Shown: piece by piece, positions 903-25,865 of the stretch
Numbering within the stretch: position 1 is the stretch's first letter
Layout of the letters: each line of letters opens with the position of its first letter
Source: Desulfobacterales bacterium
GTDB taxonomy: Bacteria > Desulfobacterota > Desulfobacteria > Desulfobacterales > JAHEIW01
DNA length: 44,462 bases
Direction of reading: 5' to 3'
Assembly: GCA_050122795.1 (NCBI GenBank)
Contig: JASFIG010000002.1
Span: forward strand, 1-44,462
Position numbers and translations under genes: made by a program
Notes under the pieces: generated by a model
The model's database searches: none
The model's input: only the letters and a program-made list of their open reading frames with translations
Told to the model about the DNA's origin: nothing

Positions 903-919
903 CCGGCAGTGTAGAGCTG

Positions 920-1273
920 ATGAAAATATCCGAAATTCAAAATATTCTGGATGCCACCATCCTGACGGGCAAAGACCAACTGGATCGCAACGTCGTCGGT
1001 GCGGGTGGCGCCGATTTAATGGCAGATGTATTATCAGCGGTTACCAAAGACGCGGCGCTGCTCACCGGCCTGACCACCGAGCAGGTTTTACGAACCGCCA
1101 AGATTGCCGAGGTAGCGGTCGTGGTCTTTGTCAGGGGTAAAAAACCCGACACACCGATCATCGAACTGGCCAAATTTTATGAGTTACCCGTTTTGTTGAC
1201 CAAATATTCCCTGTTTGTTGCCAGCGGCCGATTGTATGTCAACGGGCTACGGGGACTGGATGGTTCGTGGTAA
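920..1273 (+). CDS. DRTGG-domain protein
   Basis: 117 aa. VVGAGGADLMADVL ... LLTGLTTEQVLRTAKIAEVAVVVFVRGKKP resembles the small DRTGG modules often inserted between nuoE-like and nuoF-like genes of Hnd/Hyd-type clusters. Called from memory of the family, not searched. Confidence 0.55.
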   Translation: MKISEIQNILDATILTGKDQLDRNVVGAGGADLMADVLSAVTKDAALLTGLTTEQVLRTAKIAEVAVVVFVRGKKPDTPIIELAKFYELPVLLTKYSLFVASGRLYVNGLRGLDGSW

Positions 1274-1316
1274 GAAGGAGAATTGAGAATTCAATGATCA
1301 CTAGCGGGAGTCCGGC

Positions 1317-12620: not shown

Positions 12621-12709
12621 TTATCCGTTATCTGTTATTGGTTGTGGGTAAATAAATGACAGTTCATAGTGTCATCCCGAATAACCAATAACCACTAACC
12701 AATAACTAC
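12621..12709. repeat. heptamer-word inverted repeat (TTATCNG x4 versus CCAATAA x4) with a central 6-bp mini-hairpin
   Basis: Left arm is TTATCCG TTATCTG TTATTGG TTGTGGG (12621-12648). The centre holds ATGACA...TGTCAT. Right arm is CGAATAA CCAATAA CCACTAA CCAATAA (12678-12705). It fills the whole spacer between the two GcvH-like paralogs. Confidence 0.8.
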
Positions 12710-12733
12710 TTGTTTATGGCAAGGAGAATCATC

Positions 12734-13660
12734 ATGGCTCCGATCCGAATGGAAACTCAACAAACCGCCGACCACCCCCCATGCATTTGGTTGCAGGCGG
12801 GTGTTGTACCGCATAAGTTTTGCCGGCTGGAATACCAATGTGCTGCCTGTGCTTACGACCGGGCGATGCGCCGCACAGCTGCCGAAAACAAACAGATTCG
12901 AGACAAAGGCCGAATCCCCGAAGGCAAACGCGGCCGCATTGTTTTTTGGAAGGATAAATTACGTGAACTGCCGGCCTGGAAACAGCCCTGTCTACATCAC
13001 ATGATCGGCCATATTGAATTCCGCGCTTGCACTCATGACTACCAATGCGGCAATTGCGAATTCGATCAATATTTTAATGATCAGTTTGCCGTACATGCCG
13101 TCGTTAAACCGGTGAATGTACTAAACATAAAGGGATTTAAGATTCCACACGGATTCTACCTGCACCCGGGACACACCTGGGTAAAAATCGAAGAAGGGGC
13201 GACAGTGCGCGTCGGTCTGGACGATTTCGCCCTGCGCTTGCTGGGACCGCTGGATCAAATTGAAGCTCCCCTGATGGGTAAACAGCTGGAACAGGGGCGT
13301 CAGGACATCACGTTACGGCGGGCGGGAAACAATGCCAAATTGCTTTCTCCGGTCAGCGGAGTGGTCACCGATATTAATCCGGCGCTGCGCGAGCGCGGTA
13401 GCCGGAGCAGCGAAGATCCATATAGTAAGAGCTGGATTTTACGGCTGCACTGCAACAATCTACGCCAGGATCTCAAGAACCTGATGATCGGTAATCAAGC
13501 CGGCGAATATATTGATAAAGAGGTCAATCGCCTATACGAAGTCATTGAGGAGACAGCCGGTCCTCTTGCCGCTGACGGCGGTTACCTGGGTGAAGACATA
13601 TTCGGCAATTTGCCCCAGCTCGGCTGGCAAAAGCTGACCCGGGAATTTTTAAAAACCTAA
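12734..13660 (+). CDS. Cys-rich protein with C-terminal GcvH-like fold, paralog 2
   Basis: Start set at ATG 12734 (AAGGAGA SD 6 nt upstream) rather than TTG 12710. It has the same two C-x12-C-x5-C-x2-C modules and the same C-terminal AGPLAADGGYL..DI.GNLP.LGW tail as paralog 1. Confidence 0.8.
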   Translation: MAPIRMETQQTADHPPCIWLQAGVVPHKFCRLEYQCAACAYDRAMRRTAAENKQIRDKGRIPEGKRGRIVFWKDKLRELPAWKQPCLHHMIGHIEFRACTHDYQCGNCEFDQYFNDQFAVHAVVKPVNVLNIKGFKIPHGFYLHPGHTWVKIEEGATVRVGLDDFALRLLGPLDQIEAPLMGKQLEQGRQDITLRRAGNNAKLLSPVSGVVTDINPALRERGSRSSEDPYSKSWILRLHCNNLRQDLKNLMIGNQAGEYIDKEVNRLYEVIEETAGPLAADGGYLGEDIFGNLPQLGWQKLTREFLKT

Positions 13661-13716
13661 TTTTTTTCAGCCATCGGGTCTTTCTTTCCATCGCTGGATA
13701 CAAGACACTCGCTCAA

Positions 13717-13754
13717 AAATAAGGGATTACAGTCGATTCTGTAATCCCTTATTT
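13717..13754. terminator. bidirectional terminator hairpin (16-bp perfect stem)
   Basis: AAATAAGGGATTACAG - TCGATT - CTGTAATCCCTTATTT sits between convergent genes. The right arm overlaps the stop codon of the archaemetzincin gene. Confidence 0.7.
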
Positions 13755-14309
13755 TGCTTGCAGCCTTTTGATATCGTCTTCCAGCAGAACCTTGCAATAG
13801 TGGCACAGCTGATCCGATTTGCGGTCAACATCACCCTCATTGCGACAGTAATGCATCAGACAGGTATGTTGCGGACAGTGACGTAATTTGAACGTATGGC
13901 CCAGCTCATGAATGGCTTCTTTGATGATGCGGCTTAAATAAGGCTCCTGGGTGTCCAAGGATTGATGCCCTTCGTTGAGCCGAATGGTGGACACGATACA
14001 GGCCTTGCCGCCCAGCTGCGCTTCTCCATAGACATGGGTTAAAATCGGAATGAACAAATCCACCTGAACCATCGCCAGCACTTTTAGCGCGCTTGGCGGG
14101 GCTTTAAGGGCCAACTGTTCCAGGATAGGGGTGGAATGATATTGATTGCGATTGGTATGAAACGCAAATTCAAGGTTTTTTAAGAGGGGCCGGATGTCAG
14201 TTTGGAAACCATAGATACGCTTAATTTCTGCTCTGACACGATCCAACAGTTCGGGTGTAAAGTCTCCGATGGGGGAAATGACAATGGTATTTGGAGATAA
14301 GGACGTCAA
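13749..14309 (-). CDS. archaemetzincin-like zinc metallopeptidase (M54 family)
   Basis: 186 aa. HELGHTFKLRHC is the HExxHxxGxxHC motif, and further CxxC-type cysteines follow (CLMHYC, CHYC). The TTG start overlaps the upstream stop (TTGA), suggesting translational coupling. Confidence 0.75.
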   Translation of the reverse strand: MTSLSPNTIVISPIGDFTPELLDRVRAEIKRIYGFQTDIRPLLKNLEFAFHTNRNQYHSTPILEQLALKAPPSALKVLAMVQVDLFIPILTHVYGEAQLGGKACIVSTIRLNEGHQSLDTQEPYLSRIIKEAIHELGHTFKLRHCPQHTCLMHYCRNEGDVDRKSDQLCHYCKVLLEDDIKRLQAK

Positions 14310-15649
14310 GTTATCTTTTCAATATCATACCGTTTGATTTTGCTGTAGAGGGTGGAGCGGTCGATTCCCAGGATTTTGGCGCTTCTGGCAATGTTCCATT
14401 GGTTTTCGTTCAGTATGCGTTCAATATGGACCTTTTCCACATCCTTGAGTGAATGGGTTCTGATTTCCGTCGCGGGTTCATGGCAGAAAATGGGCAAATC
14501 CTCAGGTAAAATTTCACGCTGCCGGCCGACCACAACCGCCCGCTCGATGGCATTTTCCAGTTCGCGTATATTGCCCGGCCAATCGTAAATCATCATTTCA
14601 TCCATGGCCTCGCGGCTGATGTTGTCAATGGGTTTATTGGTCTCCTGGGAAAATCGATACAAAAAATGCTCCGCCAGAAGCGGTATGTCTTCTTTTCGCT
14701 GGCTCAAAGACGGCATTTTAAACGAAATAACATTTAGGCGGTAAAACAAGTCTTCCCGGAAATCACCGGATTTGATGGCCGCTTCCAGATCTCGATTGGT
14801 GGCCGCCATGACTCTGAAATCGGCTTCGATGGGTTGGGTACCGCCCACCCGGTAAAATACGCGATCTTCCAATACCCGCAGCAGGTCGATTTGCATCCGC
14901 ATGCTGATTTCGCCGATTTCATCCAAAAACAGGGTGCCGCCATGGGCCAACTCCAGCCGGCCCTTTTTGGTTTCTTTGGCATCGGTGAATGCGCCTTTTT
15001 GATGCCCGAACAATTCACTTTCCATCAGATGCTCCGGTACAGCGCCGCAATTGACCGTCACAAAAGGGCCGTTGCGGCGTGAGCTGTTGGTATGAATCGC
15101 TTTGGCCGCCAGCCCCTTGCCGGTGCCGGTCTCACCGGTGATCAGGACGGTTGAATCCATGGGCGCCACGTCGCAAATGAGATCAAAAATCTTCTGCATG
15201 GGTTCGGATTGGCCGATCATGCTTTCAAAGCGGGTGCGATCCTTGTATTGCTCTTTGAGGTAGATATTTTCACGCGCCTGCTCCTGATGTTGGATGATTT
15301 TCTCGATCAGCACACCCAGTTCGTTGGGGTCAAATGGTTTGAGCATATAATCAAAAGCACCGTCTTTCATGGCCTCGATCGCCGAGGGGATGGAACCATA
15401 GGCGGTGATCATAACGACCTCGGCATCCGGGTCGCTTTCCTTGACCCTACGCAACACATCCAGACCGCTGATGCCTTCCATTTTGATATCCACCAGCAAA
15501 ATGTCAAAGTGGGTCTCTTTGATTTTCTCGAGGGCTTCTTCCCCGCTGGCAGCGGTCTGGACACCATGGCCGTCGCGTTCCAACCAGCCTGCCAGAGATT
15601 CGCGCATAATCAATTCATCATCGACAATCAGGATCTTAACGTTGCTCAC
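14306..15649 (-). CDS. sigma-54-dependent response regulator (NtrC/AtoC family: REC + AAA+ + Fis-type HTH)
   Basis: 447 aa, GTG start with GGGAGG SD. ILIVDDE...DILLVDIKM is the REC domain, GETGTGKG is Walker A, GAFTDA is the GAFTGA-loop variant, and the HTH is C-terminal. Confidence 0.9.
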   Translation of the reverse strand: MSNVKILIVDDELIMRESLAGWLERDGHGVQTAASGEEALEKIKETHFDILLVDIKMEGISGLDVLRRVKESDPDAEVVMITAYGSIPSAIEAMKDGAFDYMLKPFDPNELGVLIEKIIQHQEQARENIYLKEQYKDRTRFESMIGQSEPMQKIFDLICDVAPMDSTVLITGETGTGKGLAAKAIHTNSSRRNGPFVTVNCGAVPEHLMESELFGHQKGAFTDAKETKKGRLELAHGGTLFLDEIGEISMRMQIDLLRVLEDRVFYRVGGTQPIEADFRVMAATNRDLEAAIKSGDFREDLFYRLNVISFKMPSLSQRKEDIPLLAEHFLYRFSQETNKPIDNISREAMDEMMIYDWPGNIRELENAIERAVVVGRQREILPEDLPIFCHEPATEIRTHSLKDVEKVHIERILNENQWNIARSAKILGIDRSTLYSKIKRYDIEKIT

Positions 15650-17213
15650 TGAGACCTCCCTGCGCTTGAAGTTTCTCCTCGACCGGCTTTAACGGCAATT
15701 TGACGTTAAAATTGGTGCCTTCACCGGCATGCGATTCCACGTAAATGGAGCCGCCGTGTTCCTGGATAATTCCATAGGCCACCGACAGGCCGAGTCCCAC
15801 GCCCTTGCCCTTTTTTTTGGTCGTAAAAAACGGCTCAAACAGTTTTGATAAATTTTTTTCCGGAACGCCGACGCCTGTGTCTTTGAAATCGATTAGCAAT
15901 TTGTCCTCGCGCAACGAGTACCGGGTTATAATCAACAACCGCCCGCCCCCTTTGGCTTCCATGGCCTCGGCGGCGTTAGACACCAGATTCATGAACACCT
16001 GCTGGAGCTGATCTTCGGAGCCGATCATATCCGGCAGATCCGGCTCGAGCTGGGTTTCCACCTTGACGCCGCTGATTTTAAGCAAGTTTGCGTTTAAAAT
16101 AAGAGTCTGTTCGATCAGACGGTTGATGTTGATGCTTTTGAGCTCCATTTTGGACTGGCGCGCGAAGGCCAGAAGGTTGGATACGATTCGGCTGGTGCGC
16201 CGCGTTTCGGTTTCCATTAGCGTCAGGTACTGATTAAACTGATCAATTTGCGCCTCGCCAACGGTATCTTCATCGACAATGCGTTTCATTAACATGATCA
16301 AATTGAGAATTCCGGCGATGGGGTTGTTGATTTCGTGAACCACCGACGCTGACAGTTTGCCCAAAGAGGCCATTTTGTCCTGGTGGATCAGTTTTTTGTG
16401 GGTTTCCTTGAGTTGCCGGGTGCGCTCATCAACCATTTGTTCCAGACGGCGGGTGATCTCTTCCTCTTCTCTTTTCTGTTGCGTGATATCGCGGCTGATG
16501 TGGACGAATTTGGAGATTTTGCCGTCTTTTTCCCAGATGGGATAGACGCTGACTTCATAATATCGGATTTCTCCGTCGGGCAAGATGCGCCTGCGAATGC
16601 GATGAACATGGCCTTTGTTGCGCACCACCTCCTGCAACGGGCAATGTTTTTTATCATCATTGCAGGGGTAATCCAACTTATACCATACCTGGTGGCATTT
16701 TTTTCCGATGACCTGCTCCGGGGTATAGCCCATTTTGCTTAAAAATGAAGAGTTGGCTTCCACGACTTCCATCTGCGGCGAAATCACCAGAATAAAATCT
16801 TCAATGCCGTTGAGAATGGTCTCCATCTCCGAGGTGCGTTCCCGCAATTTTTGCTCTTCCTGGCCGATGGCTTTCCAGAACATGCGAAACACCTGGTAGG
16901 CTAATATGCGAATCCGGGAGGGTCGGGTTTGTAAAATATTCTCAAAAATTTCAGGGTCCGGGGTCAGAATGATGATCAGGTGGATACTGTAACGCCGGTC
17001 ATAAAGCAGCTTGTAGTCGTCAAACGTCAGCAGGCCCAATTGGCTGGCGAGTTTCCGGCCGGGGCTTTCAAGGTCTGGGTCGGCCACCGCTAAAATGGGG
17101 GCCACCATTTCGGCCTGTTCATACACGGCGGTTGTCTTTTCAAGAATCTCCTTGCAAAACTCACCGCCGCCGACCAGACCGATATTGATGATTGAAGGCT
17201 CTTTTCGGGGCAT
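15636..17213 (-). CDS. sensor histidine kinase (N-terminal Rossmann-like GxGxxG region, Cys-containing PAS, HisKA, HATPase)
   Basis: SASVVHEINNP is the H-box, and NLVSNAAEA / DTGVGV / GKGVGLGLSV are the N/G boxes. The start is moved to MPRKEP (AGAGGA SD) instead of TTG 17240. The gene overlaps the regulator gene by 14 nt. Confidence 0.85.
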   Translation of the reverse strand: MPRKEPSIINIGLVGGGEFCKEILEKTTAVYEQAEMVAPILAVADPDLESPGRKLASQLGLLTFDDYKLLYDRRYSIHLIIILTPDPEIFENILQTRPSRIRILAYQVFRMFWKAIGQEEQKLRERTSEMETILNGIEDFILVISPQMEVVEANSSFLSKMGYTPEQVIGKKCHQVWYKLDYPCNDDKKHCPLQEVVRNKGHVHRIRRRILPDGEIRYYEVSVYPIWEKDGKISKFVHISRDITQQKREEEEITRRLEQMVDERTRQLKETHKKLIHQDKMASLGKLSASVVHEINNPIAGILNLIMLMKRIVDEDTVGEAQIDQFNQYLTLMETETRRTSRIVSNLLAFARQSKMELKSININRLIEQTLILNANLLKISGVKVETQLEPDLPDMIGSEDQLQQVFMNLVSNAAEAMEAKGGGRLLIITRYSLREDKLLIDFKDTGVGVPEKNLSKLFEPFFTTKKKGKGVGLGLSVAYGIIQEHGGSIYVESHAGEGTNFNVKLPLKPVEEKLQAQGGLSEQR

Positions 17214-17415
17214 TTGCGAAAATCCTCTAAGGTGTATCAAAACTTAAAAAATTAAACAGGTTGCAATGTCCGCTGAAGAAGCCGGCGGCCTGTTCACGTG
17301 TGGGCCAAAACGTATCACGCACCATTATCTGTTTCAAGCGCATTTTTAATACGAACCCGCTTCAGGACACTTTTGCAGGCGGCACTTCAGCGGGTTGGCG
17401 GCCTGTAAATATCGG

Positions 17416-17444
17416 TTGACAAATTAAATGAAAACAAGTAAATT
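17416..17444 (+). promoter_or_regulatory. sigma-70-type promoter for the hdrA-mvhD-metVF operon
   Basis: TTGACA - 17 nt - TAAATT. This would give a leader of about 250 nt before ATG 17700. Confidence 0.5.
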
Positions 17445-17699
17445 CGCCTCTTCGCGCTTTTTTGGCGATAAAGTGGAGCATGCCCGCAAGGGGCTCAAAT
17501 GCTTATGCATTTATGTATTCGGCAAAAAGTCGAATAAAAACGATGCTGTTGAAAAATAATGGTTTAAAGCAGCATCCTCTTGCCCTGCCACAAAGCGGCG
17601 TGTTGTTGTTGGATTTGAATTCTGGGTAACTGATGGTGAATACGGATCATCTCTTAGATCGTAAATCTAAATTAAATTCTGCTTAAGGAGTAAGACGGC

Positions 17700-20600
17700 A
17701 TGACGGATAAAGTTCAAGGATCTGTAATGGTTGTTGGCGGTGGAATTGCCGGGATGCAGGCCTCATTGGATCTGGCCAATTCCGGCTACCTGGTTCATCT
17801 GGTTGAACGCTCATCTGCCATCGGCGGATTGATGTCTCAGCTCGACAAGACCTTTCCCACTAACGACTGTGCGATGTGAATTATTTCACCCAAACTGGTC
17901 GAGGTCGGCCGGCATCTGAACATAGAGCTTTTAACCAATACTGAACTTCTAAACCTTGAAGGCGAGCCCGGTCATTTCAAGGCCCGGGTACGTCAAAACC
18001 CGCGCTACATTGATCTTGACAAGTGCACCAGCTGTGGTGAGTGCACCACGGTCTGTCCGGTGGATCTTCCCAGCGAATACGACGAAGGTCTGTGTGCCAA
18101 AAAAGCCACCTTCAAACAATATGCCCAGGCAATTCCCGGTGCATATGCCATCCAGAAAGCCGATAAAGCTCCCTGTCGCCTGGCCTGTCCGGGTGGACTT
18201 AATGTACAGGGCTACGTGCAGATGGTCAAAGAGGGCAAGTATAAAGAAGCCCTGGAGATCATCATGGAAGATCTGCCCTTGCCCGGCGTGCTGGGCCGCA
18301 TATGCCCCCACGGGTGTGAGGATGCCTGCCGTCGCTGCGAGGTTGAATCACCTGTGGCCATTCGGGATTTGAAACGCCTGGCGGCCGATAAATTTGATCC
18401 CCGGCAGGTGGAAATTAAATGTGATCCCCCAAAAAAAGAAAAAGTGGCCATTATCGGCTCCGGACCGGCCGGACTTTCCTGTGCCTATCATTTGGCCAAA
18501 AAGGGCATATTATCCACTATTTTTGAGTCCCTGCCGGAAGCGGGCGGAATGCTCAGGGTTGGTATCCCGGCCCACCGTCTGCCCCGCGAAATTCTGGACC
18601 AAGAAATAGAAATTATTACCAATCTGGGGGTTGATATCAAGACGAATACAGCTCTGGGCGAAGATGTCTCCATCGATGGCCTGCTCGAAGACGGATACAA
18701 AGCCGTTTATCTGGCCATCGGCGCCCATCAGGGTATTGAATTGGGGATCCCCGGTGAAAAGGCCAATGGTGTGCGCCAGGGGGTCGAATTTCTGCGGGAG
18801 GCGAACCTGACCGGCAGGACCGATGTCGGCAACAATGTGGCCATCATCGGTGGCGGCAATGTGGCCATTGATGTGGCCCGTTCGGCCGTGCGGCTGGGCG
18901 CCGAGACGGTCAACATTGTTTACCGGCGCACCCGCAATGAAATGCCAGCCTGGGAGGAAGAAATCCAGGCGGCCGAAGATGAAGGCGTTCAAATTACCTA
19001 TCTGTCCGCTCCCCAGGAAGTTTTAACCCGTGACGGTCGGGTGGTAGGGCTTCGCTGTATTCGCATGGAGCTCAGCGAGCCCGATTCTTCAGGACGCAAG
19101 CGACCCATTCCGATTCCCGGAAGCGAATATGAAATCGAAATCGATCAGCTGGTTCCGGCCATCGGGCAACGCCCCGATTTATCCGCCCTGGAGGATATTA
19201 CCGGACTTACCTATACCCGCTGGGGGACGACTGAAGTCGACGCGGTCACCTATGCTACCGAGCGTGACGGGGTGTTTGCCGGCGGGGACCTGCAGACCGG
19301 GCCCTGGGTAGCCATCGGTGCCATCGGCGCCGGCAAAGAAGCGGCCGAATCCATTCTGCGCTATATCGAAGGCAATGATATGGCCGAGGGCCGCGAGCCG
19401 GTTGTCAACGAAAATCCGGTCTATCGGCCCATTCCGGAAGATGAGCCCGTAATGGAGCGGGCCAAGATGCCCGAGCTGCCTATCAGCAAGCGTCAGGGCA
19501 ACTTCAATGAAGTCGAACTCGGGTACACCGAAGAAGAAGGTCGGGCTGAGGCGGCGCGCTGCCTGAACTGCGGCTATTGCTGTGAGTGCTATCAGTGCGT
19601 AGACGCCTGCCTGGCCCACGCCGTTGATCACAGTCAGCAGGCCGAAATGAAAGAAATCGAAGTCGGCTCGGTCATCCTGACGGCCGGCTGCCAGCCCTAT
19701 GATCCCGCTCACCTGGAAAACGTTTATCACTACAAAACCAGCCCCAATGTATTGACCAGCCTGGAGTTCGAGCGCATTCTGTCGGCATCCGGGCCCACCA
19801 TGGGACATCTGCAGCGTCCCTCGGACGGCAAGGAGCCTAAACGGATTGCCTGGCTGCAATGTGTCGGTTCCAGAGACAGCAACCAGTGCGGCAACAGCTA
19901 CTGCTCGTCGGTTTGCTGCATGTATGCCATCAAGGATTCCATGATTGCCAAAGAGCATTCGGAAGAGGAGCTGGATTGTGTCGTGTTCAATATGGATATC
20001 CGGACCTTTGGCAAAGACTACGAAAAATATTACAATCGCGCCAAAGATGCCGGCATCCGCTTTGTCAAATCGAAAATCCATTCGATCGATGAAATTCGCG
20101 AAACCGGCAATTTGAACTTACGCTACATGGATGATGCCGGCCACCTGCAGGAAGAGGATTTTGACATGGTGGTGCTGTCGGTGGGATTGCAGGTACCGGA
20201 ATCGACGGTTCAGCTGGCCGAACGGCTGGGGATCGAATTGGATGATTCACGCTTTGCAGTGACACATCCGTTTGCGCCCGTTCAGACCTCACGTCCCGGC
20301 GTTTATGCCTGCGGCACATTTCAGGAGCCCAAGGACATTCCCAGCTCGGTGACCGAAGCCAGCGCGGCTGCATGTGCTGCCGGCGCCAGCCTGAACTCAG
20401 CGCGCAACACACTGACCCGCAGCGTGGAGATCCCGGAAGAAATCGACGTCAGTGATGAGGAAGCCCGGGTGGGGGTGTTTGTCTGTAACTGCGGCGTAAA
20501 TATCTCCAGTGTGGTTGATGTTAAAGGGGTGACCGAATATGCCAAGACCTTGCCCAATGTGGTTCATGCCCAGGAAAACCTGTTTACCTGTTCGCAGGAT

Positions 20601-22130
20601 TCCCTGGTTCAGATGAAAGAAGTCATTAAAGAGCACAAGCTCAACCGGGTGGTGGTGGCGGCTTGCACCCCTAAGACGCATGAGCCCATTTTCCAGGACA
20701 CTATGGAATCCTGCGGATTGAACAAATACCTGTTTGAAATGGCCAATATCCGCAACCAGGATTCCTGGGTGCACTCTGAAGCTGCGAAAACCGCTACTGA
20801 TAAAGCCAGTGACCTGGTACGAATGTCCGTGGCCCGGGCAACGACACTGCACCCGTTGCAGGAAAAGAAAATCCCGGTGATCCAGAAAGGCCTGGTGATC
20901 GGCGGCGGTATTTCCGGTTTGAATGCCGCTCTGGGCCTGGCCGATCAGGGCTATGAGGTGGTTCTGATCGAAAAGGAGGCCGAACTGGGCGGGTTGGCGA
21001 ATCGCTTGACGGCAACCATCGAGGGCGCCGATATCGCAAAGTATCTCGGCGATCTGATTTCCCGTGTGACCGCGCATGAAAAGATCGAGGTGATCACCAA
21101 CGCGCTGGTGGTGGGTTATTCCGGCTTTAAAGGCAACTTTACCACCGAAATCATGGTGGGGCCGGATATGGAGCAGCGCAAAATAGAACACGGGGTGGTT
21201 ATTCTGGCCACCGGGGCCCACGAATACAAGCCCAAAGAATACCTGTACGGGGACGACCCGCGGGTAATGACCCAGCTTGAGCTGGCCGATCGGATGAAAA
21301 AAGGCGAACTCGATGCGCCTCAGCAGGTGGTTATGATTCAGTGCATCGGATCGCGCAACGAGGAGAATCCAAACTGCTCCCGGGTCTGCTGCCAGACGGC
21401 TGTAAAAAATGCGTTACACATCAAGGAAAAATATCCGGATGCCGAGGTATTTGTTCTTAACCGCGATATCCGGACATACGGACTTCTGGAAGATTACTAT
21501 ACCGAGGCCCGGCGTCAGGGCGTCTTCTTTTTTCGGTTTGATCCCGAAGACCCACCGGTGGCCGAGGCTGCCGAAGACGGCATCGAGGTCATCTTTACCG
21601 ACCACGTGCTCAATCGCAAGCTGAGCGTCAGCACGGATTTACTGGTTCTCAGTGCCGGCATGGAAGCCGCGGATACCGAGGAGCTGTCTTCTATTGTCAA
21701 ACTGGCGCGCACGGCGGAAGGCTATTTCATGGAAGCGCACGTGAAATTACGGCCGGTGGATATGGCGACTGAAGGGATTTTTGTGTGCGGCACAGCCCAC
21801 AGCCCCAAGCTGATCTCGGAAAGCATCGCCCAGGCCTATGCGGCTGCGTCGCGGGCGGTGACATTCCTGGCTCAGGACCATTTGACGCTCTCTGCGGTCA
21901 CCGCGCAGGTTGAAGCCGACAAATGCGCCTCCTGTTTGATCTGTGTCCGCTCCTGTCCGTACGATGTGCCCAAGATCAATGCAGATGGTGTCAGTGAAAT
22001 CGATGAGGCCCTCTGCCATGGTTGTGGCATCTGTACCGCGGAATGTCCGGCCAAAGCCATCCAGCTAAACTGGTACGAGGACGATCAGATCATCTGCAAG
22101 GTGGATGCGCTCTTGGAGGGTGTACTATAG
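17700..22130 (+). CDS. hdrA: giant HdrA-like flavoprotein fusion (HdrA N-terminus with Sec, inserted GltD/NfnB-like NAD(P)H module, HdrA core, second HdrA-like module, C-terminal 2x[4Fe-4S]); predicted selenoprotein
   Basis: ATG 17700 (AAGGAG SD). Hand translation gives MTDKVQGSVMVVGGGIAGMQASLDLANSGYLVHLVERSSAIGGLMSQLDKTFPTNDCAM-TGA-IISPKLVE...CTSCGECTTVCP, in frame with tracked ORF 18060..22130. TGA 17877-17879 sits where HdrA has the Cys of DKTFPTNDCxMC. Later motifs: KVAIIGSGPAGL and VAIIGGGNVAID (GltD-like), VGSRD...CSSVCCMYAIK, VGVFVCNCGVNIS, GLVIGGGISGLNAAL, IGSRN...CSRVCCQTA, and CASCLICVRSCP plus CHGCGICTAECP. Confidence 0.85.
17895..17912 (+). promoter_or_regulatory. candidate SECIS-like hairpin downstream of UGA 17877
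   Basis: CTGGTC (17895-17900) pairs with GGCCGG (17907-17912), a 6-bp stem including two G-U pairs, around loop GAGGTC. It starts 16 nt after the UGA. Hand-folded and weak. Confidence 0.3.
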
Positions 22131-22171
22131 AAGTCGAGAAGCGGAGATTAAGAATTTTTCCATTAAGATAA

Positions 22172-22303
22172 AAATCCGAAGCACGAAATCCGAAATTCGA
22201 AACAAATTTTAAATTTTAAATCCCAATGTTCAAAATACGTTTTGAATTTCGGTCATTTGATATTCGGATTTGTTTCGCATTTCGATATTCGCATTTCGGA
22301 ATT
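22172..22303. repeat. heptamer-word inverted repeat (AAATCCG/AAATTCG-type versus CGGATTT/CGCATTT-type)
   Basis: Left arm is AAATCCG AAGCACG AAATCCG AAATTCG AAACAAA (22172-22206). Right arm 22238-22303 contains GTTTTGAATTTCGG, the complement of CCGAAATTCGAAAC, then CGCATTT CGATATT CGCATTT CGGAATT. It lies between hdrA and mvhD. ORFs 22216..22578 and 22226..22465 are read-through artefacts. Confidence 0.75.
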
Positions 22304-22356
22304 AATAGATCTATCGTAGCACAAAGCAGTACAGCGTATATTAATCTGGAGGAAAA

Positions 22357-22788
22357 ATGGCTGAGAACTTTGAACCAATCATTATTGCCTTTTGCTGCAA
22401 TTTCTGAGGGTACACGGCGGCGGACCTGGCAGGTTCGATGCGGTTGCAATACCCGACCAATGTAAGGATCGTTCGGGTGCCGTGCACGGGAAAAGTCGAT
22501 GTGATTCATGTCATGCGGGCATTTGAAAAAGGTGCCGACGGCGTGGCCGTCATAGGATGCCTCGAAGGAGAGTGCCATTTTAATGCCGGCAACATGATGG
22601 CCCGCAGACGGGTGGAGCAGGCACAGAAAATACTGGATACAGTCGGCATTGGTGGCGATCGGGCCCAGATGTATAACCTGTCATCCAGTGAAGGCCCGCG
22701 GTTTGCGCAGTATGCCACAGAGATGACCCAAAAAATAAAAGAATTGGGCCCCAATCCGATCCGGGTTGCTAAAAACAAGGCGGCCTGA
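22357..22788 (+). CDS. mvhD: MvhD/VhuD-like [2Fe-2S] electron-transfer subunit; predicted selenoprotein
   Basis: ATG 22357 (GGAGGA SD). MAENFEPIIIAFCCNF-TGA-GYTAADLAGSMRLQYP runs in frame with tracked ORF 22438..22788. TGA 22405-22407 replaces the third Cys of the MvhD motif FCCNWC.Y.GAD.AG. Confidence 0.85.
22421..22437 (+). promoter_or_regulatory. candidate SECIS-like hairpin downstream of UGA 22405
   Basis: CGGACCT - GGC - AGGTTCG forms a 7-bp stem (one G-U) with a G-containing triloop, starting 14 nt after the UGA stop-like codon. Hand-folded. Confidence 0.4.
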
Positions 22789-22794
22789 AAAATG

Positions 22795-22910
22795 ATTGAA
22801 TATTGACTATTGAATATTGCAGATTGAAATGCGGAAAATAGTCAAATTTAAATTATAAATAGCTTCCCGGTGAAAATATTCATTTTTCAATTTTAAATAT
22901 TCAATTCAAA
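22795..22910. repeat. heptamer-word inverted repeat (ATTGAAT x5 versus ATTCAAT-type)
   Basis: Left arm is ATTGAAT ATTGACT ATTGAAT ATTGCAG ATTGAAA (22795-22829). Right arm 22872-22910 reads GAAAATATTCATTTTTCAATTTTAAATATTCAATTCAAA. It lies between mvhD and metV. Confidence 0.7.
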
Positions 22911-22927
22911 AGGAGAGGTACCATTCC

Positions 22928-23596
22928 ATGATTGTTGCGGACAAAAAACCGATTGAGGAAATCATTGAATACCTCAAAGATCACAAAAACATCCTGATCC
23001 TGGGCTGCAATGAGTGTGTTACCGTTTGCGAAGCCGGTGGCAAAAAGGAAGTCGGCGTTCTGGCTTCAGCCCTCAGGATGCATGCCAGCAAAGAGGGCAA
23101 AGAGGTCAAGATCGATGAACTGACCCTGGAGCGACAATGTGATCGTGAGTATCTGGATGAACTGCGGGATTCGATCGACCAGTACGATGCCGTTGTATCC
23201 CTGGCCTGCGGCGTTGGTGTACAATTTACCGCCGAGCAATACCGCGACAAGCCCATTTATCCGGGGGTGAATACCACCTTCCTGGGCGCCACCGAAGAGC
23301 GCGGTGTATGGACAGAGCGCTGCCAGGCTTGCGGACAGTGCATCCTGGCTACGACCGGGGGCATCTGCCCGGTGGCGCGCTGCGCCAAGCGTCTGTTCAA
23401 CGGCCCCTGCGGCGGATCGACCACCGGTAAATGCGAGATCAACGCCGAGGTCGACTGCGCCTGGCAATTGATCGTTGATCGCCTCAAGGCTCTGGATAAA
23501 CTTGATGAATACGAGAAGCTTTGTCCGCTCAAGGACTGGTCGACGGACCGGGCCGGAGGGCCCCGAAAAGTCGTAAGGGAGGATGTACAGCAATGA
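22928..23596 (+). CDS. metV: MetV, Cys-rich small subunit of methylenetetrahydrofolate reductase
   Basis: 222 aa. CQACGQCILATTGGICPVARCAKRLFNGPCGGS..GKCE is the MTHFR-associated Cys-rich domain. It overlaps metF by ATGA. Confidence 0.8.
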   Translation: MIVADKKPIEEIIEYLKDHKNILILGCNECVTVCEAGGKKEVGVLASALRMHASKEGKEVKIDELTLERQCDREYLDELRDSIDQYDAVVSLACGVGVQFTAEQYRDKPIYPGVNTTFLGATEERGVWTERCQACGQCILATTGGICPVARCAKRLFNGPCGGSTTGKCEINAEVDCAWQLIVDRLKALDKLDEYEKLCPLKDWSTDRAGGPRKVVREDVQQ

Positions 23597-24525
23597 CAAC
23601 AAACACACCGAGCAAACTGGAAAAGATTCTCAAAGAAGGACACCTGGCCGTTACCTCCGAGTGCGGGCCGCCCCGCGGCAGCAATATCGACCACATCGTT
23701 AAAAAAGGCGAGTTGATTAAAGACCATGTCGATGCCATCAATATCACCGACAATCAGACGTCCATGACACGCTTATGCAGTCTGGCCGCTTGTATCCGTC
23801 TGAAACTAATGGGCCTGGAACCCGTGCTGCAGATGGTCACGCGCGACCGCAACCGCATCGCCCTGCAAAGCGATATTCTCGGCGCCGCCTCTTTTGAAAT
23901 CAATAACATTTTGTGCCTGTCCGGCGACCATCAAAGCTTTGGTGATTGCCCCCAGGGCCAGAATGTGCATGATATCGACTCGATTCAGCTGATTCAGGCC
24001 ATACGGCACATGCGGGATGAGGGCAAATTTTTAGGCGGGGACGAGCTGGATGGCAAACCCCAGATGTTTGTGGGCGCGGCTGCCAATCCTTTTGCCGATC
24101 CGTTTGAGATCCGGGTGCCGCGTCTGGCCAAAAAGGTGGCTGCCGGCGTCGAGTTCATCCAGACCCAGTGCATTTACAACCTGGATAAATTCGAAGAGTG
24201 GATGAAAGGCGTGCGTGACCGCGGGCTGCATGAAAAATGCTTTATCCTGGCCGGCCTGACCCCCATGAAGTCGGTGGGTATGGCCAAGTACATGCAAAAG
24301 CGCGTGCCGGGTATGGACGTGCCTGAGGAGGTCATCAAGCGCCTGCAAGGAGTCGAAAAAGGCAAGCAGGCCGATGAGGGTATCAAGATGTGCATCGAGT
24401 CCATCCAGCGCTTAAAAGAATGTGAAGGTGTTGCCGGCTTCCACGTCATGGCCATCGAGTGGGAGGAAAAGGTACCCGAGATCGTTGAAGGCGCCGGCCT
24501 ATATCCCCGGCCCAACGGCAATTAA
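23593..24525 (+). CDS. metF: 5,10-methylenetetrahydrofolate reductase MetF
   Basis: Start set at MTTNTPSKLEKIL (GGGAGGA SD, ATGA overlap with the metV stop), not at the upstream 23521. Motifs: LAVTSECGPPRG, INITDNQTS, LCLSGD and FIQTQ. Confidence 0.85.
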   Translation: MTTNTPSKLEKILKEGHLAVTSECGPPRGSNIDHIVKKGELIKDHVDAINITDNQTSMTRLCSLAACIRLKLMGLEPVLQMVTRDRNRIALQSDILGAASFEINNILCLSGDHQSFGDCPQGQNVHDIDSIQLIQAIRHMRDEGKFLGGDELDGKPQMFVGAAANPFADPFEIRVPRLAKKVAAGVEFIQTQCIYNLDKFEEWMKGVRDRGLHEKCFILAGLTPMKSVGMAKYMQKRVPGMDVPEEVIKRLQGVEKGKQADEGIKMCIESIQRLKECEGVAGFHVMAIEWEEKVPEIVEGAGLYPRPNGN

Positions 24526-24549
24526 GACCGATATTCGAATAGCTATGTG

Positions 24550-24585
24550 AAAACCCTGTCTTTATGACACAAGGCAGGGTTTTTA
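24550..24585 (+). terminator. Rho-independent terminator after metF
   Basis: AAACCCTG (24551-24558) pairs with CAGGGTTT (24575-24582), followed by TTTTAATT. Confidence 0.65.
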
Positions 24586-24746
24586 ATTCCCATTCCGACC
24601 CCCCTTCCTGATTTAAGCCTGCAAAGCGATTCATGCGGAAAATAAGACACTCAATCTGTAAAATTGAAGTCATTCGTTTCAAGGGCCAAGGCGGCCATGA
24701 TTGCCGGTCGACTGAACGATCCATACAAGAGGCGGTTTCTTTTTGC

Positions 24747-24775
24747 TTGACTCATGTCGAGTGCTTCTTTATAGT
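24747..24775 (+). promoter_or_regulatory. sigma-70-type promoter
   Basis: TTGACT - 17 nt - TATAGT, about 120 nt upstream of ATG 24897. Confidence 0.5.
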
Positions 24776-24896
24776 TTTTTGCCTGGTTTAAAGTTCCGAT
24801 TCACTTTTTTTCCCGGATGAAATCAAATATACGGTTATGGATGGATTCGATCCGCACTTTTATCATCGATAAATTTTTCAAAAAGGAGATTTGAGA

Positions 24897-25865
24897 ATGA
24901 CGACAAGCGACAAAAAGAAAAAAAAGCCCCTGTGGTTGTCAATCGAAGAGAATATTCTCGGGCTTGATTCGCCGGACCTCTCCGGGGAAAACCTGGAAGC
25001 ATCGATTCAACGGCTTGCGGGCGAATTGGACAATGCCGGTTACAATATTTCGCATCATGGGGGCAACATGCTTAAATTGCGATGGGCCATGAATGCAGCC
25101 AGCGCAGTCGGCCGGCCCTTTATGCAGGATCTGAACACAGCCATAGAGGCGCTGACACTGGAGGACGTGGCGGATCCATATCTGGCTTCAGATAAGCTCA
25201 TCGGTGACATCGGACAGACATGGCCGGATCTAAAAAAATCAGAGCGAAGGGCGGATGTTATCAAGATCGTAGAGCAGACCAAACTCGATCTGCTGGTGGC
25301 CAAGGCCAAAAACATGGCCGGCGATGACGGCATCCGAATGCTCATAGAAGAGGAAGTGGCGCCCGACGCAATCACCAGCGCGTTGGAGATTACCGAGGAG
25401 AAGCTGCAACAGGTAAACGCCGAGATCGAAAAGGAGCGCGCCGAGCGGTCCAGGGTCGCAAAATTGCTCAAGGCGGTAGAGGGCAAGTCCAATGATGAAA
25501 AGGTCAAGCACCTTTTTGACAATGACGTCTCCGAAGAATTGATCATCGAGATGGCCCAGGTTGATCAGGCTGCGATTGATGCCGTCAAAAAGGCAATGGA
25601 GGAGGAGCTAAAGGAAAAGCAAAGACTGGAAGCAGAAGCCGCAGCACGCAAAAAGGCCGAGGCTGAAGGTCCTGCTCTGGAAGACATCCCGCCCGAAGAG
25701 ATGCTCGATCACATAGAGGCCATTCGCGAAATCATGGAATTCAGCGATCAGGAAAAAGAAATCAGAGTTATGTGCGAGCAGAGCTCCATCCCCAGGGCCC
25801 TGGTTGACATTGCTGTTTCCGAGCCTGAAAAACTGGATGAGCTTGAAAAAAAGGCTGAGGGCTAA
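24897..25865 (+). CDS. hypothetical acidic, Glu/Lys-rich predicted coiled-coil protein
   Basis: ATG 24897 is preferred over TTG 24891 (AAGGAG SD 8 nt upstream). I recognise no family motif. The C-terminal half is EEELKEKQRLEAEAAARKKAEAE-like. Confidence 0.6.
   Translation: MTTSDKKKKKPLWLSIEENILGLDSPDLSGENLEASIQRLAGELDNAGYNISHHGGNMLKLRWAMNAASAVGRPFMQDLNTAIEALTLEDVADPYLASDKLIGDIGQTWPDLKKSERRADVIKIVEQTKLDLLVAKAKNMAGDDGIRMLIEEEVAPDAITSALEITEEKLQQVNAEIEKERAERSRVAKLLKAVEGKSNDEKVKHLFDNDVSEELIIEMAQVDQAAIDAVKKAMEEELKEKQRLEAEAAARKKAEAEGPALEDIPPEEMLDHIEAIREIMEFSDQEKEIRVMCEQSSIPRALVDIAVSEPEKLDELEKKAEG

Follow-up and report, generated by a model that had tools for sequence, protein, structure and literature searches.

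The stretch of DNA analysed here (the window; 44,462 nucleotides from a Desulfobacterales bacterium) carries a four-gene operon, hdrA (HdrL type)-mvhD-metV-metF. Judged from its sequence features, its product is probably HdrA(L)-MvhD-MetV-MetF, a selenocysteine-bearing Desulfobacterales form of the Hdr-type ("type IV") methylene-THF reductase (MTHFR) that has been described for Moorella thermoacetica and Sporomusa ovata. The enzyme would most likely be NAD(P)(H)-linked, bifurcating or confurcating, and oxidative in direction; we give this reading a probability of roughly 0.65. An NAD(P)H-linked, HdrA-flavin-based methylene-THF reductase had also been proposed in an earlier interpretation made from the letters of the DNA (the sequence-only reading), and it remains the best reading of the operon. 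Energetically, the methylene-/methyl-THF step (E0' about -200 mV) is the awkward one in the Wood-Ljungdahl pathway and, to our knowledge, the second electron partner of Hdr-type MTHFRs has been sought since 2014. The operon leaves the current picture of what this enzyme is unchanged. The enzyme type is conserved across Desulfobacterales and Desulfatiglandales, and in an environmental sulfate-reducer population the MTHFR that is expressed is an Hdr-type enzyme with a built-in NAD(P)H port.

Gene organization and upstream elements

The four genes, listed in Table 1 with the other features of the region, are adjacent and co-oriented. Pfam assignments, the colinear order of related loci and RNA contigs bridging the genes all agree with the operon described in the sequence-only reading. 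The hdrA product contains three flavin sites and up to nine [4Fe-4S] sites. The metV stop is overlapped by the metF start; metV is colinear across related loci, and metF gave weak matches to solved MTHFR structures.

Table 1. Features of the hdrA-mvhD-metV-metF operon and its upstream region (positions in the window).
Feature	Position	Strand	Basis
Candidate operator, upstream motif TATCACG...GTTTCAAG	17313..17338	+	alignment of hdrL upstream regions, 15 loci
Sigma-70-like promoter TTGACA-17-TAAATT, ~255 nt 5' of hdrL	17416..17444	+	consensus scan, 10/12
hdrA, HdrL type, 1476 aa, 1 Sec	17700..22130	+	translation with TGA=Sec; Pfam
HdrA unit 1, first part, residues 1-153	17700..18158	+	aligns to 5odc HdrA 138-290
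UGA, predicted Sec60 of HdrA, motif FPTNDCAM-U	17877..17879	+	Cys197 equivalent by alignment to methanogen HdrA
SECIS-like hairpin CUGGUCG-AGGU-CGGCCGG, 16 nt 3' of UGA	17895..17912	+	fold
NfnB/GltD-like NAD(P)H module, residues ~154-625	18159..19574	+	PDB matches and motifs
HdrA unit 1, second part, residues 626-913	19575..20438	+	5odc alignment, motif conservation
HdrA unit 2, residues 914-1476	20439..22127	+	5odc alignment, motif conservation
Heptamer-repeat hairpin, hdrA-mvhD spacer	22172..22303	+	TRF period-7 arrays; fold
mvhD, 143 aa, [2Fe-2S] adaptor, Sec codon 17	22357..22788	+	PF02662, E 4e-51
UGA, predicted Sec17 of MvhD, motif CCNF-U	22405-22407	+	translation
Heptamer arrays (ATTGAAT units and complement), mvhD-metV spacer	22795..22906	+	TRF
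metV, 222 aa, Fe-S/Zn subunit of MetVF reductase	22928..23596	+	PF12225, E 1e-37
metF, 310 aa, flavin-containing methylene-THF reductase	23593..24525	+	PF02219, E 2e-35

The candidate operator motif is mostly kept in the aligned loci, with substitutions in the more distant ones. The promoter stretch GGTTGACAAAT...TAAATTC is kept in the nine closest of 14 aligned related loci, while two more distant loci keep just its TTGACA-containing part; RNA contig depth climbs from 17442 on, at the predicted promoter. The two heptamer hairpin spacers noted earlier were recovered as period-7 arrays in both intervals, with a strong fold in the first and a weak one in the second. The hdrA-mvhD spacer folds at -39.4 kcal/mol, far more stable than shuffled sequence (z -4.46), and its length varies, with mvhD abutting or nearly abutting hdrL in many relatives. 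The mvhD-metV spacer includes a 31-nt inverted repeat with 77% complementarity and folds weakly (z -1.3).

Domain architecture of HdrA

Mapping against PDB 5odc, other PDB entries and Pfam supports the earlier description of HdrA as a 1476-aa fusion with a GltD/NfnB-like module plus a second HdrA unit (914-1476). Pfam placed Fer4_20 at residues 151-233 and Pyr_redox_2 at 248-544, together with ferredoxin motifs and further Rossmann sites. The 5odc HdrA aligns in four pieces, and the GltD/NfnB-like unit falls within the inserted ferredoxin domain, with one of that domain's two cluster motifs on each side.

The first part of unit 1 comprises the FAD Rossmann start, C57/U60 and the first inserted-ferredoxin cluster motif (C109/112/115/119); the N-terminal Fe-S domain is absent from this unit in the alignment to 5odc. 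The second part carries the other inserted-ferredoxin cluster motif (C627/630/633/637), the TrxR-domain cluster (C721/735/739/740) and E691/K745, which correspond to the E/K "bifurcating flavin" signature defined in PMC9430772, citing Appel 2021. This signature is present here in unit 1 alone. Unit 2 contains the N-terminal Fe-S domain (C929/931/964/989) and a TrxR domain with an FAD site and a cluster (C1215/1226/1230/1231), and it ends in the C-terminal 2x[4Fe-4S] ferredoxin domain; in the 5odc alignment it lacks both the inserted ferredoxin domain and equivalents of Cys194/197. Neither unit corresponds to the canonical HdrA protomer of 5odc, whose N-terminal Fe-S domain, Cys197, inserted ferredoxin and C-terminal ferredoxin domains are split between the two: Sec60 and the inserted ferredoxin domain come from unit 1 only, the N-terminal Fe-S and C-terminal ferredoxin domains from unit 2 only. 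As judged from these alignments, HdrA is a single-chain pseudo-dimer in which the canonical domains occur once each, spread over two TrxR units. The complementarity of Sec60, N-terminal domain and ferredoxin domain fits the pseudo-heterodimer logic of fused HdrAs, as presented in the sections of PMC9012536 on these proteins.

In a PDB search, the insert matched StnC-like chains, NfnB and GltD with E values of 1e-133 to 1e-61, the best matches being 9bov_A (7.5e-133), 8oh5_C (3.5e-113) and 4ylf_B (2.3e-95). Eight Cys for two [4Fe-4S] clusters (159, 163, 202, 206, 210, 213, 621 and 624) were identified, along with the FAD site GSGPAG at 253, the NAD(P)H site GGGNVA at 384 and YRRT at 408-411. 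The module is permuted, with the N-terminal segment of NfnB (NFxEV...RCLxC) placed at the insert's C-terminal end. The family motifs G253/255/258 and G384/386/A389 are present and, like the Cys ligands save C213, invariant in 71 orthologues, in line with the complete cofactor motifs previously claimed for the module. Across these 71 HdrL orthologues (61-96% identity), every Fe-S ligand but C213, both nucleotide motifs, E691/K745 and the TrxR-domain clusters of both units are invariant. No NfnA or GltB partner subunit for the NfnB-like module was found in the window. An NfnA/PyrK-like gene was observed after hdrL-mvhD in the D. alkanivorans locus (L079) only.

Selenocysteine codons

The TGA codon is retained in 76 of 76 related loci for HdrA (U60) and in 75 of 76 for MvhD (U17), as expected if two of the four subunits are Sec proteins, as had been suggested. 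The SECIS-like hairpin is identical in sequence in 13 of the 14 loci inspected, with a single change in the other, and nearby codons drift at wobble positions. SelA is encoded in the genome; a tRNA-Sec was not found in this metagenome-assembled genome (MAG), which is estimated to be 85% complete. With UGA at a Cys position, a near-invariant hairpin and SelA, HdrA and MvhD are predicted to be bacterial selenoproteins.

Distribution of the operon and of CCG-domain proteins

Of the 80 Desulfobacterales/Desulfatiglandales loci that extend far enough, nearly all are colinear for hdrL-mvhD-metV-metF. A large share of the 151 genomes sampled from the order carry full-length HdrL-type genes, and many of these have two or more.

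The sequence-only reading had stated that no hdrBC genes accompany hdrA, and locally this holds: no CCG gene was found within the operon or between 17241 and 26268. The nearest one (29089-31224) is part of a separate acyl-CoA dehydrogenase/ETF module. The closest relatives of the operon also have no CCG gene, save clade member L071. Among 55 informative related loci, 33 have no CCG gene nearby, and 22 encode a fused HdrC+CCG (HdrCB-like) selenoprotein inside the same cluster; this gene takes two different cluster positions and is scattered over the HdrL tree. The genome under study contains at least 26 CCG domains and carries two HdrCB-like orthologues elsewhere (68-77% identity), one of which has RNA contigs in the same metatranscriptome as the operon. 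An orthologue elsewhere is likewise present in 17 of the 25 genomes without an adjacent HdrCB-like copy. The remaining 8, two of them chromosome-level records, have no close orthologue of the operon-linked HdrD-like protein, just paralogues of 34-38% identity. These natural variants (HdrCB-like gene in the cluster, elsewhere, or no close orthologue) offer a comparative handle on the need for a CCG site.

Genome context and expression

The genome encodes acetyl-CoA synthase (CdhC/ACS) and formyl-THF synthetase (FTHFS), and it also has a compact NfnB-like-MetV-MetF locus. Wetland metatranscriptome contigs, which are assembler contigs from environmental samples and not pure-culture reads, span 17442-24824, with flanks near zero. 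Exact RNA contigs bridge mvhD, the mvhD-metV spacer and metV. The second metVF locus of the genome had no RNA contigs in the same runs.

Proposed electron route and third partner

By homology to the methanogen enzyme structure, as summarized in the relevant part of PMC9012536, electrons would pass from the MetF flavin through MetV and the [2Fe-2S] cluster of MvhD to the C-terminal ferredoxin domain and an HdrA FAD. From this flavin, they may continue over the N-terminal cluster completed by Sec60, the inserted ferredoxin clusters and the NfnB clusters and FAD to NAD(P)+/NAD(P)H. Flavin-based confurcation or bifurcation involving a third partner would enable the uphill transfer from methyl-THF (-200 mV) to NAD(P)+ (-320 mV). 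Oxidation is the most likely direction for the enzyme. In a syntrophic acetate oxidizer, methyl-THF has been proposed to be oxidized by the Moorella reaction in reverse, driven by ferredoxin (PMC6295475). Reduced ferredoxin could be the third partner, at a little below even chances. The HdrCB-like CCG selenoprotein encoded elsewhere in the genome is a more tentative candidate, and a linear enzyme with no third partner seems improbable.

A tenable arrangement, at odds well short of even, is the self-contained complex favored by the sequence-only reading, in which the four proteins work without a CCG or heterodisulfide-type site and NAD(P)H, methylene-THF and free ferredoxin are the mid-, high- and low-potential partners, respectively; in the oxidative direction, methyl-THF and reduced ferredoxin would give two NAD(P)H. 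The potentials balance, the mean of -200 and about -450 mV being about -320 mV, and reduced ferredoxin would come from CODH, which acts in the same pathway, as proposed in PMC6295475; ferredoxin involvement, however, could not be demonstrated for the Moorella enzyme (PMC8760232), and the inserted ferredoxin domain, the ferredoxin dock in methanogens, is occupied here by the NfnB module. The four-gene core alone is universally conserved, and both the 33 loci without a nearby CCG gene and the eight genomes with just distant HdrD-like paralogues fit such a complex, whereas both units keep, without variation, the TrxR-domain clusters that in methanogens connect to HdrC, and HdrCB-like genes are embedded in 22 of the related clusters. 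These embedded genes and the two orthologues in the genome count against the earlier claim that the complex lacks a heterodisulfide-type site. A CCG partner encoded elsewhere and co-purifying had been named as evidence against that claim; the encoded half of this was found.

The embedded Sec-containing HdrC+CCG genes, with their two positions and scattered occurrence, fit a CCG-dependent enzyme, an option we consider tenable at the same odds, well short of even. Its low-potential branch would run from the N-terminal cluster through the inserted ferredoxin domain and NfnB to NAD(P)+, and its high-potential branch from the TrxR cluster to the fused HdrCB-like selenoprotein and a candidate disulfide (DsrC or another thiol carrier), which maps one-to-one onto the canonical methanogen wiring. 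The Moorella and Sporomusa clusters include hdrCB, and in S. ovata, MetF and HdrA were recovered in an HdrB pull-down, although the S. ovata enzyme is not stimulated by dithiols (PMC9430772). The orthologues found in this genome, one with RNA contigs, and in 17 of the 25 genomes without an adjacent copy have to be set against the eight that lack a close one and against the missing CCG gene in the operon and in its closest relatives except L071; with at least 26 CCG domains in the genome, partner assignment is also ambiguous. A linear, non-bifurcating NAD(P)H:methylene-THF oxidoreductase, comparable in function to the type III enzyme RnfC2-MetVF from Acetobacterium woodii and with the HdrA flavins and clusters serving as a wire, is improbable: the oxidation of methyl-THF by NAD(P)+ is uphill by about 23 kJ/mol, the 71 orthologues all keep the E691/K745 pair that marks bifurcating HdrA flavins, two extra flavin domains would make an expensive wire, and the compact NfnB-like-MetV-MetF locus is already available for that job. 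It would nevertheless agree with type III enzymes, which show that MetVF and an NADH module suffice and that methyl-THF is oxidized when the product is pulled away (PMC8760232), and homology allows an unbroken chain of cofactors to be traced between MetF and the NfnB module.

For the bifurcating or confurcating Hdr-type enzyme that we prefer, the eight genomes without a close orthologue mean that a four-subunit core enzyme is still possible. In lineages like the present one, whose clusters carry no HdrCB-like gene, HdrL-MvhD-MetV-MetF might be a complete confurcating enzyme converting methyl-THF and reduced ferredoxin into two NAD(P)H, with the HdrCB-like selenoprotein of other lineages as an optional diversion to a thiol/disulfide carrier; we consider this rather unlikely. 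If true, the "second partner" so long sought for Hdr-type methylene-THF reductases would be ferredoxin, and self-sufficient confurcation would explain how complete-oxidizing sulfate reducers pass the methyl-THF step.

Comparison with known systems

The HdrA-GltD fusion is not new, as the same layout has already been described in Moorella thermoacetica, whose Hdr-type MTHFR is MetFV-HdrABC-MvhD (Mock et al. 2014, via PMC8760232 and PMC9430772). Moorella HdrA, which is encoded with hdrCB, has 1487 aa and three flavins; its N-terminal TrxR/Fd part is split by a GltD domain, its second unit spans aa 922-1487, and it carries E696/K750 (PMC9430772). Compared with this published description, the domain order here is the same (TrxR/Fd split by GltD, then N-terminal-type domain, TrxR and C-terminal Fd), with corresponding values of 1476 aa, 914-1476 and E691/K745. 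In the sequence-only reading, the GltD insert and the second HdrA unit stood "instead" of HdrBC, in contrast to Moorella; this contrast is lost, since the Moorella protein combines the same layout with hdrCB. Both systems share the MetV-MetF core, MvhD and a giant HdrA. They differ in that hdrC/hdrB are not in the operon here, the order is hdrA-mvhD-metV-metF and not hdrCBA-mvhD-metVF, HdrA and MvhD are predicted selenoproteins, and the E/K signature is found in unit 1 only, whereas Moorella has it in both units. The host here, a relative of sulfate reducers, probably uses the pathway in the oxidative direction. Heterologously produced Moorella HdrA oxidizes NADH (PMC8760232, PMC9430772), while the closest solved homologues of the module (StnC, NfnB) use NADPH.

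With NfnB (T. maritima 4ylf_B, P. furiosus 5jca_L) and StnC-type chains (8oh5_C, 9bov_A), the module has in common the two-[4Fe-4S] helical domain and the FAD and NAD(P)H Rossmann domains. Its YRRT motif is identical to that of T. maritima NfnB, and its RCLxC segment follows the module body as in StnC-like chains. Unlike these modules, it has no NfnA partner and forms an internal HdrA insert instead of a free subunit or N-terminal domain.

Similar elements are described for ANME-1 archaea in the HdrA sections of Chadwick et al. (2022, PMC9012536). HdrA9-11 have an NfnB-like insertion of ~500 aa in the inserted ferredoxin domain, as here, and the fused or tandem HdrA3/4 form a pseudo-heterodimer with a complementary N-terminal domain and Cys197, also as here. 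In those sections, however, the insertion and the fusion belong to different paralogues and not to one protein, the unit order of HdrA3/4 is reversed, with the N-terminal-domain unit first, and the HdrAs are not encoded beside metVF.

According to the passages on HdrL in Strittmatter et al. (2009, PMC2702500), HdrL of Desulfobacterium autotrophicum HRM2 is a large fusion of HdrA and the glutamate synthase small subunit, proposed to oxidize NADH. Both proteins are HdrA/GltD-like fusions followed by mvhD, and some D. autotrophicum copies contain Sec. Those passages link HdrL1 to dsrABC and do not describe an hdrL-mvhD-metVF operon. They also regard HdrL as unique to D. autotrophicum, whereas our survey of 151 sampled genomes found it widespread in the order.

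Organization of the hdrL operon and domain architecture of HdrL

The hdrA-mvhD-metV-metF operon is a lineage-typical selenoprotein form of the known Hdr-type methylene-THF reductase (MTHFR), with a giant HdrA of the HdrL type. Translation with TGA read as selenocysteine, together with Pfam matches, bore out the operon coordinates, lengths and motifs proposed in the sequence-only reading. Under table 11, hdrL yields just a 1356-aa ORF starting at 18060, and because the UGA at codon 60 is not read through, the public gene calls for the HdrL family are all N-terminally truncated (1302-1405 aa).

Coordinates of the operon, HdrL domains and related features (nucleotide positions in the window, residue numbers in HdrL, or positions in loci and contigs of the same MAG or a relative)
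Feature	Position	Strand	Remarks
Neighbour block	11622-17240		two Cys-rich GcvH-like genes, M54 peptidase, sigma-54 response regulator, PAS histidine kinase
TATCACG...GTTTCAAG motif	17313-17338		conserved, upstream of hdrL
TTGACA-17-TAAATT	17416-17444		conserved sigma-70-like promoter, then ~255-nt leader to hdrL
hdrA (hdrL)	17700-22130	+	1476 aa; single UGA at codon 60 in FPTNDCAM-U-IISPK; TGA translated as selenocysteine
mvhD	22357-22788	+	143 aa; UGA at codon 17 in CCNF-U; PF02662, E 4e-51
metV	22928-23596	+	PF12225, E 1e-37
metF	23593-24525	+	PF02219, E 2e-35; start overlaps metV stop
Glu/Lys-rich ORF	24891-25865		324 aa, directly 3' of metF; no Pfam match
CCG-domain gene	29089-31224		sole CCG gene in the window
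HdrL piece	34-153		5odc_A HdrA 171-290 (phmmer)
HdrL piece	626-845		5odc_A HdrA 292-510 (phmmer)
HdrL piece	920-1098		5odc_A HdrA 2-180 (phmmer)
HdrL piece	1326-1471		5odc_A HdrA 501-649 (phmmer)
Unit 1	1-153 + 626-913		FAD Rossmann fold at very start; no N-terminal Fe-S domain
Unit 1 C57/U60	57, 60		equivalent to HdrA Cys194/Cys197 (three-way alignment)
Unit 1 inserted ferredoxin domain	109, 112, 115, 119, 627, 630, 633, 637		all eight Cys
Unit 1 TrxR-domain cluster	721, 735, 739, 740		Cys
Unit 1 E/K signature	691, 745		E691/K745
NfnB-like module Cys	159, 163, 202, 206, 210, 213, 621, 624		eight Cys
NfnB-like module motifs	253; 384; 408-411		FAD GSGPAG; NAD(P)H GGGNVA; YRRT
Unit 2	914-1476		N-terminal domain Cys 929, 931, 964, 989
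Unit 2 own TrxR cluster	1215, 1226, 1230, 1231		Cys
Unit 2 C-terminal ferredoxin domain			eight Cys
HdrD-like orthologue, contig C1	C1:21891-23219 (L082:7880-9187)	-	68-76% identical
HdrL-type paralogue, contig C344	L087:52-5349		with NfnB insert
Split HdrL-like set, contig C67	L088:3425-9063	-	unit-1-like 453 aa; unit-2-MvhD fusion 689 aa; ferredoxin+NfnB-like 601 aa
Second metVF locus, contig C296	L084:16-3131		NfnB-like gene stop overlaps metV, metF next
Desulfosarcina alkanivorans PL12 locus	L079:12733-16191		hdrL and Cys-type mvhD, then Fer4_22 polyferredoxin and NfnA/PyrK-like flavoprotein, not metVF

When HdrL was searched against PDB chains with phmmer, methanogen HdrA (5odc_A) matched it in four pieces (E 2e-179), and residues ~155-634 matched NfnB/GltD-type chains, including 9bov_A (7.5e-133), StnC 8oh5_C (3.5e-113), T. 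maritima NfnB 4ylf_B (2.3e-95) and GltD (about 1e-61). The domain map was derived from a three-way alignment of the two HdrA-like halves (units 1 and 2) with methanogen HdrA, in which unit 2 lacked both an inserted ferredoxin domain and any counterpart of Cys194/197. The NfnB-like module is placed exactly between both cluster motifs of the inserted ferredoxin domain of unit 1. Furthermore, the segment NFxEV...RCLQC, which is N-terminal in NfnB (4ylf_B residues 8-42), was found at the C-terminal end of the insert (~600-624), and the module is therefore sequence-permuted; StnC-like chains carry this segment at the same displaced position. Such a permutation is what a domain insertion would require.

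Residue conservation was assessed in 71 full-length HdrL orthologues (61-96% identity). All mapped ligands are invariant, with the exception of C213 (Cys in 52 of 71). E691 and K745 are likewise invariant, and the unit-2 equivalent of the Glu is variable (A, S, G or D).

Selenocysteine positions

All 76 related loci have TGA at codon 60 of HdrL. The counterpart of U60 in methanogen HdrA is Cys197, which one protomer contributes to the N-terminal cluster of the other (PMC9012536). Sixteen nt after this TGA lies a 19-nt element, CTGGTCGAGGTCGGCCGGC, forming a 7-bp hairpin with an AGGU loop; it is the same in 13 of 14 loci inspected and carries a single change in the remaining one, while adjacent codons drift at wobble positions. 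The TGA at codon 17 of mvhD is kept in 75 of 76 loci, the sole exception being Desulfosarcina alkanivorans, which has TGC and also no metVF downstream. Folding of the SECIS hairpins was not significant (z -0.4 and -0.5), and as they are thermodynamically unexceptional, the selenocysteine assignment rests on conservation. SelA was found in the MAG; tRNA-Sec was not found by ARAGORN on the whole MAG, from which 26 tRNAs were recovered at an estimated assembly completeness of 85%.

Distribution and genomic neighbourhood

A scan of species-representative genomes identified 524 relatives; the best 80 of the 524 loci match all 1476 aa with 61-96% identity. Represented among these best 80 are Desulfobacterales, Desulfatiglandales, the Olavius symbionts Delta 1 and Delta 3, and MAGs labelled Desulfosudis oleivorans and Desulfonema, and nearly every sufficiently extended locus among them has mvhD-metV-metF after hdrL in the same order. 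Full-length colinear HdrL genes are common in 151 sampled genomes of the order, often in two or three copies. Copies nearest to the window have TGA; at about 50-54% identity, Cys predominates. Since HdrL is common in these genomes and the operon order is kept in relatives, this protein type and its operon are a common property of the order.

The conserved neighbour block of the hdrL operon includes a PAS kinase whose orthologue (at least 50% identity) occurs in 34 of the best 80 of 524 loci, either divergent upstream or downstream of metF (the latter, for example, in L039, L050, L053 and L073); GcvH-like genes occur in 20 of the same 80. PMC8760232 raises GcvH as a possible redox partner of MTHFR, and for this reason a functional link between the GcvH-like block and the hdrL operon is worth considering. 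Additionally, seven loci (L014, L016, L019, L044, L049, L070 and L078) carry a further, divergent metF-like gene, sharing 30-34% identity with the operon MetF, immediately upstream of hdrL. The genes behind hdrL in D. alkanivorans PL12 provide the same HdrL clade with partners of a Flx/Nfn-like kind. The Glu/Lys-rich ORF behind metF is kept only in the nearest relative, L002, and is almost without RNA contigs.

Upstream region, spacers and transcription

Because a divergent sigma-54 activator adjoins hdrL, a sigma-54 promoter was sought; no match of the GG-N10-GC type was found in 17241-17699, where the conserved sigma-70-like promoter is present. Both spacers (hdrL-mvhD and mvhD-metV) carry period-7 arrays on both arms (TRF); the first folds at -39.4 kcal/mol (z -4.5), the second with only z -1.3. 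In many relatives, mvhD begins at or very close to the hdrL stop. The heptamer spacers are therefore lineage-specific insertions, read through by transcripts, and not a conserved regulatory device.

In wetland metatranscriptome assemblies, contigs cover 17442-24824 with almost nil depth in the flanks; being assembler contigs of environmental RNA, they attest presence and linkage, not quantity. Error-free contigs run from the end of hdrL into the first spacer (22037-22205) and from mvhD through the second spacer into metV (22432-22919 and 22890-23041). Contig depth at 17763-18083 reached ~820 in one run (X18) versus 5-70 elsewhere in the operon, and this highly conserved Sec/SECIS region likely gathers contigs from many related populations.

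CCG-type partners and other HdrA-like loci of the genome

The sequence-only reading held that no hdrBC genes accompany the operon. None was found in or near it, and the part of the claim concerning the operon itself stands. The sole CCG (HdrB-type domain) gene in the window was rejected as a partner, as it belongs to an acyl-CoA dehydrogenase/EtfBA module whose TetR and ACAD neighbours adjoin the operon in only 3 of the best 80 of 524 loci. When an HMM built on the genome's own CCG domains was searched against the related loci, it matched an ORF near metF in many of them. This HdrD-like gene is a single ORF encoding about 445 aa; its in-frame TGA (...LNTE-U-GHE...) is kept in 19 related loci. 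The product consists of an HdrC-like N-terminal half with two [4Fe-4S] sites, matching HdrC chains at about 1e-12, and a C-terminal half with one CCG domain. In most cases the gene follows metF with a small receiver gene between; in L041, L043, L058 and L075 it lies between mvhD and metV. The claim needs qualification here, since the gene was present in 22 of 55 informative related loci and two orthologues are encoded elsewhere in the MAG itself, one on C1 and one on C306/C405 (75-77% identical). Some RNA contigs of the same metatranscriptome fall on the C1 copy, downstream of which come a NifX-like gene and two MinD/ferredoxin ATPase genes.

The linkage is scattered over the HdrL tree, requiring at least 7 to 11 changes, and within the window's own HdrL clade only L071 has the gene. 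Among 25 genomes without an operon-adjacent copy, 17 encode an orthologue (at least 60% identity) at another site, and the other 8 have just 34-38% identical paralogues (two of these on chromosome-level records). A CCG partner is therefore frequent, not universal.

The MAG containing the window (its contig C2) comprises 529 contigs and 4.7 Mb at an estimated 85% completeness, and the records closest to it are "Desulfobacterales bacterium" MAGs from wetland and sediment. It encodes CdhC/ACS, formyl-THF synthetase and about a dozen HdrA-like loci, most of them tandem HdrAs without an NfnB insert and with CCG genes and mvhD alongside (C63, C72, C100, C270 and others). Another NfnB-containing HdrA paralogue adjoins a CCG gene on C496. 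The HdrL-type paralogue on C344 lies directly downstream of 2-oxoacid:ferredoxin oxidoreductase genes, resembling the HdrAL/POR cluster reported for Syntrophobacter fumaroxidans. The fully split fusion on C67 shows that the genome also has the HdrL modules in unfused form. The second metVF locus, on C296, is probably a compact NAD(P)H-module-MetVF form; the 5' end of its NfnB/GltD-like gene is cut by the contig edge, and its metVF had no RNA contigs in the two metatranscriptomes checked, the runs covering the hdrL operon.

Electron paths and alternative mechanisms

According to PMC9012536, MvhD of the methanogen complex exchanges electrons with the C-terminal ferredoxin domain, and FAD delivers them through the N-terminal cluster to the inserted ferredoxin domain and through the TrxR-domain cluster to HdrC. 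The set of cofactors and its strict conservation are established for the operon, as are gene linkage and transcription; beyond this, homology suggests corresponding paths in HdrL. MvhD would exchange electrons with the C-terminal ferredoxin domain, and the FAD would communicate with the inserted ferredoxin domain via the N-terminal cluster, completed by Sec60 of unit 1, and with an HdrC-type partner via the TrxR-domain cluster. The branch leading to free ferredoxin in methanogens would here lead to the NfnB module and NAD(P). No partner of the HdrC-facing clusters is encoded in the operon.

Methyl-THF (-200 mV) cannot reduce NAD(P)+ (-320 mV) unaided, and this uphill step leaves three mechanisms to be weighed. 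We tentatively favour co-oxidation of reduced ferredoxin with methyl-THF (probability about 0.4), the Moorella proposal in reverse, in line with the four-gene core being the only universal set; it has already been suggested for a syntrophic acetate oxidiser (PMC6295475). Somewhat less probable is a scheme in which methyl-THF electrons bifurcate, one branch reducing NAD(P)+ and the other a more positive disulfide at the HdrCB-like protein (the HdrD-like selenoprotein); the frequent but dispensable CCG linkage partly supports it. A linear enzyme pulled by downstream reactions, as in the type III enzyme, seems unlikely given the invariant E/K signature and the compact NfnB-like-MetVF locus in the same genome. 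The overall interpretation made from the sequence is partly supported, and the observation underlying it is confirmed. The operon is ordinary for its order.

Comparison with known systems

The 'HdrL' of Desulfobacterium autotrophicum, described in its genome paper (PMC2702500), is the same kind of fusion protein. In a literature search of limited scope, 'HdrL' and 'MetF' appeared together only in that paper. For ANME archaea, PMC9012536 reports an NfnB insert within the inserted ferredoxin domain as well as a pseudo-heterodimer logic for fused HdrAs, and it notes that Moorella HdrA consists of two fused HdrA units.

The HdrA of the Moorella thermoacetica Hdr-type MTHFR (162.8 kDa) has a C-terminal HdrA-like part at residues 922-1487, with an N-terminal-type domain, TrxR and C-terminal Fd and no inserted Fd domain, and E/K signatures at E696/K750 and E1204/K1246 (PMC9430772). 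Compared via these published coordinates, the window protein has the same order at near-identical positions (1476 aa, 914-1476, E691/K745). The earlier contrast between a Moorella HdrABC and a GltD fusion in its place was mistaken, because Moorella HdrA has the same fusion layout and occurs together with HdrBC (PMC9430772). As to the nucleotide, the nearest solved homologues use NADPH, whereas the orthologue from Moorella oxidises NADH, at 190 U/mg with benzyl viologen (PMC9430772). The window operon differs from that of Moorella in having no adjacent hdrCB, in its two Sec residues, in keeping the E/K signature in one unit only, and in a host that probably runs the pathway oxidatively.
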